A stretch of 34,093 bases of DNA from an uncultured Candidatus Saccharibacteria bacterium (GTDB lineage Bacteria > Patescibacteriota > Saccharimonadia > Saccharimonadales > JACDBH01). The notes under the pieces were generated by a model that was given only the letters and a program-made list of their open reading frames with translations, was not told where the DNA came from and did not search any database. The stretch spans positions 1 through 34,093 of the forward strand of contig OZ246417.1 in the NCBI GenBank assembly GCA_965231105.1, written 5' to 3'. A program made the position numbers and the translations under genes. Shown piece by piece: positions 1 through 30,424 of this stretch (position 1 is its first letter; every line of letters begins with the position of its first letter).

Positions 1-658
<658 letters not shown>

Positions 659-834
659 TTATGGGATATGAGATTAGCCTCTGTTTGGTGAGGAAGGTCT
701 CATATCTTCGAGCAGAAGCATTAACTAGTTATTGGTGATTAACTCACCGCTTGAATTCGACATTTAACATCTTATCTAAGGCACCTCAATATGGACGCCG
801 ATTCGCGCGCCGCTTCTACGGAAGGGCCCGCTAA

Positions 835-25607: not shown

Positions 25608-26423
25608 TTACCTTCTAGCCAGGATTGCGGGAAGTTCAGATAGGGAAGTAATAATATGGGTCGCACCAGCTTTTCTGAGGACTGACTCGTCTTCAAAACC
25701 GTGCGTAATACCTATACCTTCCGCAATTCCTGCGCTTGCCCCGGATTGGATGTCGTAGGTATGATCACCCATGACAGCGGCATTTTCAGGACGTACCCCT
25801 AAGCGCTCCAGGGCTATCAGCGCACTTAAAGGATCGGGTTTTGTTCGTTCCTGTACGTCATCACAGGTAACAACTGTAAGTTTTGGGATATTAAATACTT
25901 CTTCTAGTCTCTCCGTAAACATGTTTAATTTCGTAGGATCGTCAATACTTCGATCTTGATAAAGTGAACTGTAGCTACCAACTCGATCTTTCAATGCAAT
26001 ACCGAAGTTTCTTACGATATGATGGGGTGTACCACTGGTAAAAATTCCCAGCTTAATCCCCATCCTTCCTATCTTAGCTAAAGTATCGGCAAGATGAGGA
26101 AAAGGCTGTATATATTCAGGGGCGAGCCTATCTTGAATAGGGTCAAGGAGCGCATGCAGTTCGTCATAATCCATGCCTTCGAGATGATGAGTCCGGTCTT
26201 CATAGAGTGCACGAACTGTACGCTCTAAGGTTTGACGAGCGCTTCCGCCTACCACCTGGTTGAGAAGTTTTTCATATTGATCATACTGAGGTATGTCTCC
26301 TGCAGGTACGCCGTGATGGCGGAGGAAGGTAACGGCAGTTTCGTATTGTCCATGACGAATAAGGGGTACCGTGTTTACTAAGGTACCGTCTGCATCGGAA
26401 ATAAGGGCTTCAAAAGCTTGCAT
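25608..26423 (-). CDS. HAD-superfamily hydrolase (phosphatase-like)
   Basis: Motif I ISDADGTL, motif II FTSG, KPDP, motif IV MGDHTYDI. The start is probably at 26423 or 26429, not 26492. Confidence 0.9.
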   Translation of the reverse strand: MQAFEALISDADGTLVNTVPLIRHGQYETAVTFLRHHGVPAGDIPQYDQYEKLLNQVVGGSARQTLERTVRALYEDRTHHLEGMDYDELHALLDPIQDRLAPEYIQPFPHLADTLAKIGRMGIKLGIFTSGTPHHIVRNFGIALKDRVGSYSSLYQDRSIDDPTKLNMFTERLEEVFNIPKLTVVTCDDVQERTKPDPLSALIALERLGVRPENAAVMGDHTYDIQSGASAGIAEGIGITHGFEDESVLRKAGATHIITSLSELPAILARR

Positions 26424-26515
26424 AACCATAAAATAACACAGATTACACTTATAAATGAAACTTCTCTCGGAAGGATTACATACAAGACTCACGAAAACCG
26501 GTATACTAAGCAGGT

Positions 26516-26782
26516 ATGAAAGTGCTTATCTTTTACAGGCCAGATTCAGAACATGCTCGTAGTGTCGAAGAATTTGTTCACGACTTCGGTAAACAATATC
26601 CAGACTTAAGTCTCACGCTCGTTAACCCCGATACCATTGATGGCAGCCAAAAGGCTGAAGTCTATGATGTGATGAGCTACCCGACCACCATTGCAATTAG
26701 CAATGATGGCAGTATTTTGTCTCGGTGGGATAATGGTGGCATGCCCCTTATGAACGAAGTGGCTTATTACGCCAATCAGTAA
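26516..26782 (+). CDS. Small thioredoxin/glutaredoxin-fold-like protein without cysteines
   Basis: beta-alpha-beta pattern, AEVYDVMSYPT (cis-Pro-like), SEHA in place of CxxC. Confidence 0.65.
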   Translation: MKVLIFYRPDSEHARSVEEFVHDFGKQYPDLSLTLVNPDTIDGSQKAEVYDVMSYPTTIAISNDGSILSRWDNGGMPLMNEVAYYANQ

Positions 26783-26817: not shown

Positions 26818-27252
26818 ATGAACAAACCCGCCGTTATTACAGCAGGAATGCTAGGCCTAGGAACTGGTGTATCAGTTGGTGAAGTAGCTCAGCGACTAGA
26901 GATTAATAGTGCAAAACAAGATGTAGAAGATGGAGCCATTTGTATTGCAGGCGAAGTGCCTGTACGACAAGAAGAGGATGGGCTGCTTCATTGTCTCGAT
27001 ATTACTTTAGAAGTAGCGGACGAAGTGTCTGAAGGCTCGACAGTATCCATCGACTGGCAAGCTACCGAAGAGCGACTCCATGGGAGTTTGCAATTTGCTC
27101 AAGATAAAGAAAGACGAGCAGGGTTGGACGGTATATTCGGGGTAATGGGAGCTGCTCTGGTAGGTGGCGTTGTCTATATAGTCACTGAGGGGCATATGCG
27201 GTCTCGCTTTTACGCGCCAAAAAAGTTCAGTAGTTCACGACGTTTAGCGTAA
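26818..27252 (+). CDS. Hypothetical membrane protein (144 aa)
   Basis: N- and C-terminal hydrophobic segments; TTGTAC-17 nt-TAGGAT promoter 6 nt before ATG. Confidence 0.6.
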   Translation: MNKPAVITAGMLGLGTGVSVGEVAQRLEINSAKQDVEDGAICIAGEVPVRQEEDGLLHCLDITLEVADEVSEGSTVSIDWQATEERLHGSLQFAQDKERRAGLDGIFGVMGAALVGGVVYIVTEGHMRSRFYAPKKFSSSRRLA

Positions 27253-27256
27253 GCGT

Positions 27257-27285
27257 TTGTGCTTTTTTGAGTAACAGAGTAAAAT
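27257..27285 (+). promoter_or_regulatory. Sigma70 promoter of the ileS leader
   Basis: TTGTGC-17 nt-TAAAAT; predicted start about 27292, just before T-box Stem I. Confidence 0.7.
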
Positions 27286-27294
27286 GCCAGTAAA

Positions 27295-27479
27295 TGCATT
27301 TGAGATGGCTATCAACCATCAAGCAGTGGGAAGAAATCGGATAAGAGAGTAGAACCCACCGGCAGAGATCTCCGTAAAGATCGTAACTAAGAGCCATTTC
27401 TTTGGAAGTCAGATGGTACCTCCGGACCACCCGGATCTGACAGCAGAAGAAGTGGCTTTTTGCTTTTAGAAAGGAGCAA
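27295..27479 (+). promoter_or_regulatory. T-box riboswitch (tRNA-Ile, ultrashort Stem I, probably translational)
   Basis: Stem I GATGG-ctATCaa-CCATC (AUC specifier); Stem II GTGGG-AAGAA...AGTA-GAA-CCCAC; IIA/B pseudoknot CGG..GATC..CCG..GATC; discriminator GTCAGA-TGGTACC-TCCGG-accac-CCGGA-TCTGAC; SD hairpin TTGCTTTT/AGGAGCAA. Confidence 0.92.
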
Positions 27480-27484
27480 ACACT

Positions 27485-30424
27485 GTGAAGTTTAAATCAG
27501 GCACACGTCGCAAGGCTTTAGAATACGAAAAAGACCTTGTTGCGTATTGGAAAGAAAATAAGACTTTTGAGAAGTCTGTTGAAATGCGCCCTAAAAGTAA
27601 CAGCTATGTCTTTTATGACGGCCCACCCTTCATTACCGGGGTGCCACATCATGGCACCCTCCTTAGTTCGGTAATTAAAGACGCCGTGCCTCGTTATTGG
27701 ACCATGAAAGGTAAACGAGTTGAGCGCGTATGGGGTTGGGACTGTCATGGATTGCCGGCAGAAGTCTTTACTGAAAAGAAGCTCGGCATTACCGATAAAC
27801 GCGATATTGGTACAAAGATCTCGCTCGAAGAATATATCAATACCTGCCGGGCCAATATGATCCAGACTGGTTCTGAGTGGAATGATGTCATTGACCGTAT
27901 AGGTCGCTGGGTTGATATGGAACATGCCTATAAGACCATGGACAAAAACTACATGGAATCTGTGTGGTGGGCTTTTAAAGAATTGTACGACAAGGGCAAA
28001 ATCTATGAAGGCGAGAAGGTGCTCATGTACTGCACGCGTGACGCCACTCCAATTAGCAAAGCTGAAGTTGCCATGGATAACTCGTACCAGGATGTCACTG
28101 ATCCAAGCGTGTATGTGAAGTTTAAACTGAAAGGCAAGGATGAATATTTACTTGCCTGGACCACGACGCCATGGACTTTACCGAGTAATGTGGCCGTCGC
28201 CGTTAACAAAGACCTTGAATATGGTATTTATGATGTAGATGGAACAACATTAGTGGTTGCGAAGGAATTAGCTTCTAAGGTGTTTACAGACGAAAAACAC
28301 AACGTTGTGCCATTTACACTTAAGCAGACTATCAGGGGTGAAGAGCTTGTTGGCCAGGAATACGAACCTTTGTTCGAAGATCGTGGTAAGAATGCGCATA
28401 AAGTTTGGCATGCTGACTTTGTGCATGCCGAAGAAGGCACGGGTATTGCTCACGAATCACCTGGTTATGGTGAAGACGACTATATCCTTGCGAAAGCAAA
28501 TGACGTGCCGTTTGTAATTGACACGGACGATGAGGGTTTCTATACCGAAGGAGAATGGAAAGGTAAGCAAATCTGGGAGATCAACAAAGAGATTGCCAAG
28601 TCCCTGCATGAACGCGGTGTCGTTTGGAAGATCGAATATATCCGTCACTCCTATCCGCATTGTCACCGATGTGGCACAAAGCTTATGTACCGGGCTCATC
28701 CAAGTTGGTTTATGGATATTGAGGGCCAACGCCAGGAAATGCTTGAACAAAATGGGAATATCAACTGGTTCCCAGACCATATCAAGACGGGCCGTTTCCC
28801 TAAGACTGTTGAGAGCGCACCAGACTGGAACTTAAGTCGCGATCGTTTCTGGGCTACAGCCTTGCCGGTATGGAAGGGCAAGGATAAGAGCGGCAAAGAA
28901 CATGTAAAAGTTGTTGGTAGCTATGCTGAACTGAAGGAGTTATCAGGAGTAGAGCTTGAAGACTATCATCGTCCTTGGGTAGATGATGTAACCTTTACGA
29001 TCGATGGGGTAAAGTACACCCGTGTCGATAAGGTGTTAGACTGCTGGTTCGAAAGTGGCAGTATGCCCTTTGCGCAGTTCCATTACCCCTTTGAAAACGT
29101 TGATAAGTTTGAGGCTAATTTCCCCGGCGACTTCATCGCTGAGTATGTGGGCCAGGTACGCGCCTGGTTCTATTACCTCCATACGGTATCTGTTGGACTC
29201 TGGGGAAAGAATTCGTTTAAGAATGTTGTGGTAACAGGGACTATTAACGGCAGTGATGGGCGAAAGCTCAGCAAGTCTTTGGGCAATTACACTGATCCGA
29301 ATGAGGTGATGGACAAATATAGTGCCGATGCCTTGCGCTTCCTGTTCCTTAGTTCAACCCTGCTGAATGGAGAAGACTTTACTCTTAAGGATAAAGATAT
29401 ATCAGATGTCAGTCGTAAGCTCGCGATGGTCTGGAATATGTACGATTTCTTCACTATGTACGCCTCTGTTGATGGCTGGGAGTACGATGGCGAGCTCGTT
29501 GATCCAAGTCTCGAGTGCCAGAACCCTCTGGACACATGGGTGTTGTCTCGAGTGCACCAGCTGATCCAAGAGGTAGATCACCACATGCAGGCCTATGATT
29601 TACCTAACGCTACCAAGCCAATCCTTGAATTCATCGAAGATGCCTCGAACTGGTATGTACGTCGCAGTCGTAAGCGTTTCTGGAAGAGTGAGGATGACGG
29701 CGATAAACAGATGGCTTACACTGTGCTTCATTACGTTCTTGTCCAGCTTGCAAAGGTGATGGCACCCTTTACGCCATTCCTCGCTGAGGAACTGTACCAA
29801 AAGCTTACCGGAGAAGAATCGGTCCATCTGGTGGACTGGCCAGAGGTAGGGCATGTGAATGAGCTGTCAATGCAGAAAATGGCAGGCCTTCGCCATCTCA
29901 TTACCATCGGACTCAGTCTCCGGGCTGAAGCAGGCGTAAAGGTACGCCAACCGCTCCAGAGTGTCACCCTAGAACTTGGCTTTAAAGAACATTTTGGGGA
30001 TGAACTGACAGAAATATTACGTGAAGAGCTAAATGTGAAAGAGGTTAAATTTGAGGATGATGGATTTGATCCATCTAAGACGATTAAGGAAAATGTCGAA
30101 GAAAACGGCCTTCCTAACTACTACAAGGTTAAGAGCCTTGATACCAAGCTAACGCCCAGTCTGAAGCGAGAAGGGCTCATGCGTGATGTGATCCGATTAG
30201 TACAACAGGCTCGCAAAGATGCTGGCCTGAATGTGGATGATCGAATCCGCTTAAGCCTACATACGGACGCCAAGGAACTCGGCGAGTCTATCAAGGAGCA
30301 TAAAGACACTATTGCTACCGAAACGCTTGCTACAAGCCTCCATATGACTTCAGAGAGCTACCAATACAAGACCGAAGGCAGTGTAGAAGGCGAAGCTCTC
30401 GTACTTGCACTCGAAAAAGCGTAA
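27485..30424 (+). CDS. ileS: Isoleucyl-tRNA synthetase, type 2 (eukaryote-like)
   Basis: YDGPPF, GWDCHGLP, AWTTTPWTLPSN, WNLSRDRFW, WFESGSMP, QVRAWFY, KLSKS, NWYVRRSRKRFW; GTG start with AAGGAG SD; no C-terminal zinc finger of type 1. Confidence 0.98.
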   Translation: MKFKSGTRRKALEYEKDLVAYWKENKTFEKSVEMRPKSNSYVFYDGPPFITGVPHHGTLLSSVIKDAVPRYWTMKGKRVERVWGWDCHGLPAEVFTEKKLGITDKRDIGTKISLEEYINTCRANMIQTGSEWNDVIDRIGRWVDMEHAYKTMDKNYMESVWWAFKELYDKGKIYEGEKVLMYCTRDATPISKAEVAMDNSYQDVTDPSVYVKFKLKGKDEYLLAWTTTPWTLPSNVAVAVNKDLEYGIYDVDGTTLVVAKELASKVFTDEKHNVVPFTLKQTIRGEELVGQEYEPLFEDRGKNAHKVWHADFVHAEEGTGIAHESPGYGEDDYILAKANDVPFVIDTDDEGFYTEGEWKGKQIWEINKEIAKSLHERGVVWKIEYIRHSYPHCHRCGTKLMYRAHPSWFMDIEGQRQEMLEQNGNINWFPDHIKTGRFPKTVESAPDWNLSRDRFWATALPVWKGKDKSGKEHVKVVGSYAELKELSGVELEDYHRPWVDDVTFTIDGVKYTRVDKVLDCWFESGSMPFAQFHYPFENVDKFEANFPGDFIAEYVGQVRAWFYYLHTVSVGLWGKNSFKNVVVTGTINGSDGRKLSKSLGNYTDPNEVMDKYSADALRFLFLSSTLLNGEDFTLKDKDISDVSRKLAMVWNMYDFFTMYASVDGWEYDGELVDPSLECQNPLDTWVLSRVHQLIQEVDHHMQAYDLPNATKPILEFIEDASNWYVRRSRKRFWKSEDDGDKQMAYTVLHYVLVQLAKVMAPFTPFLAEELYQKLTGEESVHLVDWPEVGHVNELSMQKMAGLRHLITIGLSLRAEAGVKVRQPLQSVTLELGFKEHFGDELTEILREELNVKEVKFEDDGFDPSKTIKENVEENGLPNYYKVKSLDTKLTPSLKREGLMRDVIRLVQQARKDAGLNVDDRIRLSLHTDAKELGESIKEHKDTIATETLATSLHMTSESYQYKTEGSVEGEALVLALEKA

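Follow-up and report, generated by a model that had tools for sequence, protein, structure and literature searches.

A 34,093-nt stretch of contig OZ246417.1 (assembly GCA_965231105.1, + strand), hereafter the window, carries an isoleucyl-tRNA synthetase gene (ileS) preceded by a leader (27295-27467; all coordinates are window positions) that we consider, with a probability of roughly 65%, to be a T-box riboswitch which responds to tRNA-Ile(GAU) and controls ileS by transcription attenuation through a nested terminator. In this proposed arrangement the terminator helix would enclose the antiterminator helices A1 and A2 and take its 5' strand from Stem III. In canonical T-boxes, by contrast, the 5' strand of the terminator consists of the 3' strands of A1 and A2 (A1' and A2'), a rule that reviews give without exception. 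The first-pass annotation of this DNA had recognised an ultrashort T-box of Actinobacteria type in front of ileS, had ended it at 27441 and had drawn its Stem III as UUC-uuug-GAA. The element continues to 27467, with a terminator strand and a U-run, and by homology Stem III is formed by CCA and UGG. The earlier register is probably wrong, because it would consume the invariant AA next to Stem III, and as both the register and the 3' boundary were misplaced, the unusual expression platform was missed.

The proposed nested terminator in the window and its relatives

In the minimum free energy (MFE) fold of the window, strand X pairs with strand Y (Table 1) to form an outer helix that encloses an intact A1-bulge-A2 core and ends directly at the U-tract UUUUUGCUUUU. 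The X/Y duplex reaches -14.6 kcal/mol, and the energy of the outer helix together with A1 and A2 is -30.6 kcal/mol, compared to -16.8 kcal/mol for Stem III together with A1 and A2. The outer helix in the window also captures G27393, the last base of the RRRxG motif. A stable, GC-closed helix directly before a U-tract is what is expected of an intrinsic terminator; its form is not that of a simple short-loop hairpin, the "loop" being the 34-nt folded A1-bulge-A2 core, and it is absent from the list of a consensus terminator scan (loops of 3-8 nt).

A search for the motif GAUGG[U/C/A]A[C/A]C within 300 nt of a start codon yielded 55 relatives in addition to the window. A U-run of at least four is present in 55 of the 56 leaders, 10-25 nt past A1', and in 50/55 the helix runs into it without any gap (0 nt). 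When folded without constraints, 50 of 55 leaders form the X/Y helix, and 48 of these 50 retain every one of the six A1 pairs. The outer helix is typically 11-14 bp long and takes over 6-9 nt from Stem III (its loop and 3' strand), so that Stem III and the outer helix are mutually exclusive. When 55 leaders were folded up to the end of A1', A1 was formed in 48 and Stem III in 49; upon addition of Y, Stem III was lost in 46 of these 49 while A1 was kept, at a free energy change of -8.2 +/- 3.6 kcal/mol.

As a control, the same code was applied to canonical discriminators collected from metagenomes (70 distinct ones, with AGGGUGGUACCGCG and a U-run after it). In these, Y is specific for its own A2'/A1' (native -11.7, cross pairs -8.6 kcal/mol; 0/5000 permutations) and not for its own Stem III region (-8.3 and -8.7 kcal/mol, 4510/5000); its MFE partner is A2'/A1' in 60/70 and the Stem III region in none, and A1 is never fully kept (0/70). 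The method thus finds the textbook design in the set that has it, and the Saccharimonadales design is its mirror image. Among the 55 Saccharimonadales leaders, Y is specific for the Stem III region (native -12.6, cross pairs -7.2 kcal/mol; 0/5000) and barely so for A2'/A1' (-4.7 and -4.1 kcal/mol, 24/5000), and its MFE partner is the Stem III region in 50 leaders and A2'/A1' in four. Unlike in canonical T-boxes, therefore, the 5' strand of the predicted terminator is Stem III, and A1 and A2 survive inside it.

Covariation among 43-73 related leaders is seen in every helix of the predicted structure. When 43 leaders were aligned with MAFFT in an unbiased way (alignment A1), 91.9% of the cells were paired, compared to 71.9% in shuffles and 28-42% with slid partners, and compensatory changes occur in 22 of the 27 pairs: 4/4 in Stem I (100% paired), 5/5 in lower Stem II (94.9%), 1/3 in helix IIA (94.6%), 4/6 in helix A1 (100%) and 5/5 in helix A2 (95%). 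Since the outer helix was misaligned by MAFFT alone (80% paired), native-versus-cross duplex permutations and a covariance model were used; on the model-guided alignment all 12 pairs of the outer helix show compensatory changes, with one position occupied, for example, by UA 24, AU 19, CG 9 and GC 7 times. Stem III itself is an 8-9 bp hairpin in 28 relatives (90-98% paired, compensatory changes in 7/7 upper pairs), and the AAG-x-G and AA around it are invariant (28/28).

A covariance model of the 3' domain (R1), built from relatives only, so that the window was absent from its seed, matches the window at 27379-27461 with 61.2 bits (E ~2e-11 in 676 kb). The model was applied to the 80 loci with the best isoleucyl-tRNA synthetase (IleRS) matches among 185,579 species genomes, almost all of them labelled as metagenome-assembled genomes of Saccharibacteria/Saccharimonadales, with IleRS identities of 52-78%. 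The leader was found in 70 of these 80 Saccharimonadales loci, in one copy each and always on the ileS strand; the ten loci without a match to R1 are four that lack the 5' sequence, the genomospecies TM7-H1 clade (L064-66, L076), L070 and L071.

Decoding and sensing features of the leader

Membership of the T-box family is secure as judged by the sensing and decoding features, which comprise a specifier followed by a purine, the UGGN...ACC bulge, a Stem II with S-turn and IIA/B, and the RRRxG-Stem III-AA module. All features listed by the first-pass annotation are present where it had put them, and its central point also stands, as the specifier AUC, the bulge UGGU (matching A73) and the downstream gene all agree on isoleucine. 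A short helix with the specifier in its terminal loop, placed before ileS, is what characterises the ultrashort ileS class, and the ultrashort Stem I was likewise read correctly. The Rfam search that the annotation had proposed gave an end-to-end match to RF00230 (27290-27442, model positions 1-219, 26.5 bits, below the gathering score; E=3e-4 in a 321-nt search), in which 76 distal Stem I model positions are collapsed to 7 nt. No T-box is reported at the Rfam gathering threshold, nor in a whole-window scan at E<=1.

In the decoding half, the AUCA of the specifier loop is invariant in 43/43 aligned leaders. Stem I consists of 4-5 bp, and a long Stem I with the distal platform of interdigitated T-loops that contacts the tRNA elbow is lacking. 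A basal helix below Stem I, missing from the first-pass list, is sequence-specific (native -2.1, cross pairs -1.1 kcal/mol; 0/5000); in the family it is flanked by GA, AA or UA before Stem I and by GA or AA after it (GA and AA in the window), and with these purine flanks the base of Stem I resembles the kink-turn (K-turn) of canonical T-boxes. The GAA and UAGA of the S-turn are invariant in the 43-leader alignment, and the IIB pairing is sequence-specific (-3.8 against -2.3 kcal/mol, 0/5000).

In the sensing half, GAUGG together with the A and the C of the bulge is invariant in the same alignment. The base pair at the bottom of A2 is variable, being GC in 14, GU in 13, UA in 8 and AU in 6 leaders (columns 184/213), or GU 26, GC 18, UA 16 and AU 8 on the model-guided alignment. 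In total, the leader departs from the textbook T-box in three features, as its Stem I is not long, its basal A2 pair is not the G.U sensor, and its predicted terminator is not made from A1'/A2'. Several relatives carry bulge variants at the position facing the discriminator base, namely UGGC (L002, L011, L020, L051), UGGA (L005, L053) and UGGUAAC (L015), which would predict a tRNA-Ile with G73 or U73 in those genomes, or else tolerance of a mismatch.

Ultrashort ileS T-boxes have reportedly been described by Sherwood et al. (2015) in Mycobacterium tuberculosis, M. smegmatis and Nocardia farcinica. The window leader shares with the actinobacterial ultrashort class the short Stem I, the Ile specifier in its terminal loop and the lack of an elbow platform (PMC7583486; bioRxiv 10.1101/2023.02.28.530422), as well as the Stem II S-turn, IIA/B, Stem III, the UGGN bulge, and an ileS gene encoding a type-2 IleRS. 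It differs in its host phylum (Patescibacteria, or Candidate Phyla Radiation, CPR), the likeness being judged by published descriptions, and in its output: the actinobacterial sequestrator of the Shine-Dalgarno (SD) sequence is formed from the 3' half of the antisequestrator, whereas the window family has a helix and a U-tract and no conserved SD pairing. With the transcriptional T-boxes of Firmicutes (RF00230; Bacillus subtilis glyQS and tyrS) it has in common a predicted intrinsic terminator, a putative K-turn-like base, the S-turn, the pseudoknot, the RRRxG-Stem III-AA module and the A1-UGGNACC-A2 discriminator, but unlike these the family lacks a long Stem I with interdigitated T-loops and does not conserve G.U as the basal pair of A2.

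Table 1. Features of the ileS leader and of its surroundings in the window.
Feature	Position	Strand	Description
23S rRNA, 3' end	1-663		bacterial
5S gene	834-950
HAD-family hydrolase gene	25608-26492	-
orf88	26516-26782	+	88 aa
144-aa open reading frame (ORF)	26818-27252	+
67-aa ORF	27227-27430	-	GTG start
Intergenic gap holding the leader			232 nt, between the 144-aa ORF (end 27252) and the 979-aa ORF
Promoter-like element	27257-27285	+	TTGTGC (27257-62), 17 nt, TAAAAT (27280-85); putative, would start a transcript near 27292
Stem I module, whole	27295-27325	+
Basal helix	27295-97 / 27323-25	+	UGC / GCA; internal loop AUUUGA / AA
Stem I	27304-08 / 27316-20	+	GAUGG / CCAUC; 7-nt loop CUAUCAA with codon AUC (27311-13) and conserved A (27314)
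Stem II	27326-27359	+	GUGGG (27326-30) / CCCAC (27355-59); S-turn strands AAGAA (27331-35) and AGUAGAA (27348-54); distal part minimal
IIA/B pseudoknot	27360-27382	+	IIA CGG (27360-62) / CCG (27372-74); IIB loop GAUC (27367-70) with GAUC (27379-82)
Stem III and purine latch	27389-27407	+	AAGAG (27389-93, RRRxG); CCA (27394-96) / UGG (27403-05); loop UUUCUU; AA (27406-07)
Strand X	27393-27405	+	GCCAUUUCUUUGG; 5' strand of the predicted nested terminator, holding the latch G and all of Stem III
A1-bulge-A2 core	27408-27441	+	A1 5' strand, bulge, A2 hairpin, A1 3' strand
A1	27408-13 / 27436-41	+	GUCAGA / UCUGAC
T-box bulge	27414-20	+	UGGUACC; UGGU complementary to tRNA 3'-ACCA with A73
A2	27421-25 / 27431-35	+	UCCGG / CCGGA; loop ACCAC
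Strand Y	27444-27456	+	CAGAAGAAGUGGC; 3' strand of the predicted nested terminator, making 11 uninterrupted pairs with 27393-27403 and, in addition, G27405-C27444
U-tract	27457-27467	+	UUUUUGCUUUU (U5GCU4), directly after the outer helix
Shine-Dalgarno sequence of ileS	27470-27476	+	AAAGGAG, from sequence
ileS ORF	27485-30424	+	979 aa, type-2 IleRS; start codon GTG 27485-27487

Proposed mechanism and competing explanations

In the mechanism that we propose, the ultrashort Stem I would offer AUC-A to the anticodon, buttressed by the S-turn and IIA/B and with no elbow platform, while the UGGU of the bulge would pair with the 3'-ACCA of the tRNA. Before Y is transcribed, the RNA would hold Stem III, A1 and A2. 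Without uncharged tRNA to lock Stem III, Y would invade, the outer helix would stack under the unchanged A1 and A2, and the polymerase would terminate at U5GCU4. Bound uncharged tRNA-Ile would lock Stem III together with its purine latch and keep X unavailable while the polymerase crosses the U-tract, allowing ileS to be transcribed; Stem III with its latch would then represent the ON state. [quoted passage not shown] We would give even odds to the wider proposal that Saccharimonadia possess a distinct kind of T-box, with static antiterminator helices and with Stem III and its latch as the sole moving part, in which the contest between docking and invasion by the terminator strand reads out aminoacylation, co-transcriptionally and without contact to the tRNA elbow.

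Several points weigh against attenuation by a nested terminator. The cognate tRNA-Ile gene was not recovered in the window or in 60 related loci, and its A73 and GAU anticodon are for that reason assumed from general knowledge. Contigs carrying the first ORF of the window are shorter than 3 kb. To our knowledge, intrinsic termination in Saccharibacteria is so far uncharacterised. In the window, Stem III consists of only 3 bp (-2.5 kcal/mol) and would be a weak competitor for a helix of -14.6 kcal/mol, and the basal A2 pair is U27421-A27435 instead of the canonical G.U, which is the conserved steric sensor of the 3'-aminoacyl group in the T-boxes studied. Since A1 and A2 persist in both states, transmission of the aminoacylation status would depend wholly on what we infer for Stem III and the latch. 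The pair counts for the outer helix come from an alignment fitted to the model, although they agree with the permutation test, which is not model-fitted. The Rfam score of the leader is far from the gathering score of 93 bits, and transcriptional T-boxes are held to need a long Stem I for fast capture of the tRNA (PMC7583486). Finally, the nested model does not yet explain the whole family, because about 12 relatives (group A: L002, L003, L006, L008, L010, L013, L014, L018, L030, L034, L068, L080) lack a local Stem III, their AAG-U/C-CCC-AA running straight into A1, and four of them (L006, L008, L013, L034) fold into a classic terminator. In group A, the Y strand can pair with GYCCC or with A1', and L030 (CCU/AGG) and L068 (CCUAA/UUAGG) hint at covariation with GYCCC.

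Translational control is the output expected from the literature, in which actinobacterial ileS T-boxes carry SD-sequestering hairpins in place of terminators (PMC1262725) and the ultrashort class is described as translational, with competing sequestrator and antisequestrator structures that include the SD (bioRxiv 10.1101/2023.02.28.530422). By analogy, a sequestrator would hide the SD of the window leader and uncharged tRNA would free it via the antisequestrator, and the MFE fold of the window does pair UUUGCUUU (27459-66) with GGAGCAAA (27473-80), covering the SD (~-7.1 kcal/mol). This hairpin, however, shares no nucleotide with A1 or A2, and its formation would therefore not depend on tRNA binding. 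The idea of a conserved SD sequestrator had to be rejected after permutation, the complementarity between U-run and SD being -4.13 natively and -4.28 in cross pairs (3656/5000, 44 leaders). The position of the leader points the same way: the U-run lies 20-232 nt from the start codon, and at no fewer than 14 loci the leader is found 0.4-1.2 kb upstream of ileS, with a whole gene for a GNAT acetyltransferase or a small EutQ-like cupin in between. Such variable distances and intervening genes fit transcriptional rather than SD-based control, and U5-7 directly behind a GC-closed helix is a hallmark of terminators. Translational control therefore appears unlikely here, and the label "Actinobacteria-type" given in the first-pass annotation is not supported, as that class is defined as translational whereas the helix abuts the U-run in 50/55 leaders and SD complementarity is not conserved. 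The hairpin between UUUGCUUU and GGAGCAAA would hide the SD in read-through transcripts, and its pairing is not conserved in relatives. The genes between T-box and ileS were located at 477-1007 in L028, 2112-2657 in L058, 2649-2999 in L009 and 2046-2399 in L074; these GNAT and cupin genes would be co-regulated by the charging of tRNA-Ile.

If the leader is transcriptional, its terminator could still be the canonical one, in which the 3' strands of A2 and A1 (27431-27441) pair with downstream sequence and exclude the antiterminator; this is the rule in canonical T-boxes, was recovered in 60/70 of the control, and is how L006, L008, L013, L034 and the L088 leader (from a Peregrinibacteria cluster) fold. 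Yet the best duplex of 27428-27441 with 27442-27456 in the window is discontinuous and reaches only -5.7 kcal/mol, against -14.6 kcal/mol for the Stem III strand, A1 is intact in the MFE fold, and across the family native and cross pairs differ by a mere 0.6 kcal/mol. Judged by duplex energies and the MFE fold, a classic A2'/A1' terminator is not present in the window, and we regard the canonical design as highly improbable for it. The leader might also be a constitutive structural clamp, i.e. a non-switching terminator or a decaying T-box, with the ileS level set by leaky read-through and not by tRNA. The compatibility of A1 and A2 with the outer helix, the 3-bp Stem III of the window, the lack of the G.U sensor pair and an OFF fold that is 14 kcal/mol more stable would all suit such a clamp. 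Against it, AUCA, RRRxG, AA and, in the bulge, UGG, A and C have remained invariant although the IleRS proteins are only 52-78% identical, and compensatory changes preserve both Stem III and the outer helix, which would be expected only if both alternative structures are in use. A terminator more stable than the tRNA-free antiterminator is, moreover, normal for T-boxes (TBDB), and we consider a clamp or decayed element very unlikely. Attenuation through the nested terminator is thus the reading that we prefer.

Locus, phyletic range and significance

The contig is of Saccharimonadales origin and shows no sign of being chimeric, which agrees with the first-pass suggestion of a CPR (Saccharibacteria) genome and disposes of an actinobacterial or chimeric contig, the possibility that would have undermined it. 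The labels of the 80 best IleRS loci, the conserved gene order and the even GC content of the window (0.44-0.51) all concur. The order nrdJ - orf88 - leader - ileS - rplU is recurrent among the 80 loci, with nrdJ present in 34, orf88 in 63 and the gene for L21 in 48. The gene downstream of the leader encodes an isoleucyl-tRNA synthetase (TIGR00392, 812 bits), and its assignment to type 2 is supported by a clear difference in scores between PDB entries 8c8u (~690 bits) and 1ile (~645 bits) on the one hand and the type-1 entries 1ffy and 8c9e (290-330 bits) on the other. No tRNA gene was found anywhere in the 34-kb window.

The promoter proposed in the first-pass annotation was confirmed in part: both hexamers and the 17-nt spacer are present, but they amount to a resemblance to the consensus, with 3/6 matches at the -35, and the promoter is absent from the list of a consensus promoter/terminator scan. 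In relatives, -10-like hexamers occur 12-45 nt upstream of Stem I at variable positions. Among the neighbouring genes, orf88 has no Pfam or NCBIfam match, is the upstream neighbour of the ileS leader in the 63 loci mentioned above, and is 47-65% identical among the best-matching loci listed. The HAD-family hydrolase gene and the 144-aa ORF, the latter without a family match, lie between nrdJ/orf88 and the leader and look like lineage-specific insertions, because neither has a counterpart in any of the 80 loci. The 67-aa ORF that overlaps the leader on the opposite strand is most likely spurious, since the covariation of the leader is of the RNA type.

With regard to its origin, the leader had been suggested to have been acquired, together with ileS2, from the host phylum of Saccharibacteria. 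The IleRS is indeed of type 2, but Actinobacteria are no closer than Borrelia or Peregrinibacteria, and the survey of leaders beyond the window, which the first-pass annotation had called for, recovered the element at the 70 Saccharimonadales loci and additionally at L088 and L089. IleRS identity falls from ~60% in Saccharimonadia clusters to at most 49% in the whole representative library (38-49% outside Saccharimonadia), and the named IleRS neighbours (3/20 clusters, 38-45% identical), i.e. Peregrinibacteria, Borrelia parkeri and Acidimicrobiia, are about equally distant. Recent transfer from actinobacterial hosts is thus not supported, as the actinobacterial IleRS is not specially close. 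Given its spread over Saccharimonadales loci, L088 and L089, together with the absence of any special closeness of the IleRS to Actinobacteria, the leader appears to be an old element passed on vertically within Saccharimonadia, with further occurrences in CPR and losses in some clades. An ancient transfer, in either direction, is conceivable.

The L089 leader (1275-1459; IleRS 45% identical) shares the ultrashort Stem I, in the form GUGG-CUAUCAA-CCAC, and a predicted nested terminator made of UAAUCAGG / UCUGGUUA with U5 behind it. L088 (1279-1486), whose IleRS belongs to a cluster named Candidatus Peregrinibacteria, holds an ileS T-box that scores 41.9 bits in Rfam. Like the window leader, it belongs to a CPR lineage, precedes a gene for IleRS2 and comprises a truncated Stem I, S-turn, pseudoknot, Stem III and the bulge UGGUACC; unlike it, L088 has a Stem III of 9 bp, and its terminator (UCCUUGG-AAA-CCAAGGA-U6) is of the classic kind, using up A1'. 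The position of its specifier is ambiguous, with G-AUC-A in the terminal loop of a helix that has 7 bp and sits on an AAGUA/GA internal loop. No T-box was found at the two IleRS2 loci sampled outside CPR (L083, from the Acidimicrobiia cluster, and L087), nor at L090-L092 (IleRS 45-52% identical). At L090, the start codon of ileS follows 20 nt after the end of a tRNA gene (1407-1480).

As a rule, CPR organisms are portrayed as poor in regulators. A literature search, with the full entries of TBDB and Rfam outside its scope, retrieved no paper linking T-boxes to Saccharibacteria, TM7, CPR or Patescibacteria, nor any account of a T-box whose terminator draws on Stem III. In TBDB the ultrashort model was searched in Actinobacteria only, and neither the paper nor its supplements mention Saccharibacteria or CPR phyla. 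The CPR T-boxes considered here (window 27290-27442, L088, L089) score 26-42 bits, far below the gathering score of RF00230, and the window match vanishes in the 34-kb scan, so that standard annotation pipelines miss them.

The leader described here predicts tRNA-sensing RNA control of an essential gene in most environmental Saccharimonadales as well as in two or more other lineages connected via IleRS2, one of them a Peregrinibacteria-named cluster, which would widen the known phyletic range of T-boxes and bears on their origin. It would also break two textbook associations, that of an ultrashort Stem I with translational control and that of the terminator with the 3' half of the antiterminator. 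Docking of Stem III and the linker has emerged from recent cryo-EM and single-molecule work as the step that discriminates charged from uncharged tRNA, and the Saccharimonadales leaders, whose output is seemingly wired straight to that step, may be regarded as a natural experiment on Stem III. If the proposed mechanism is true, a long Stem I is not required for transcriptional T-boxes, and the ultrashort ileS T-box would be an old element common to CPR lineages rather than an actinobacterial speciality.

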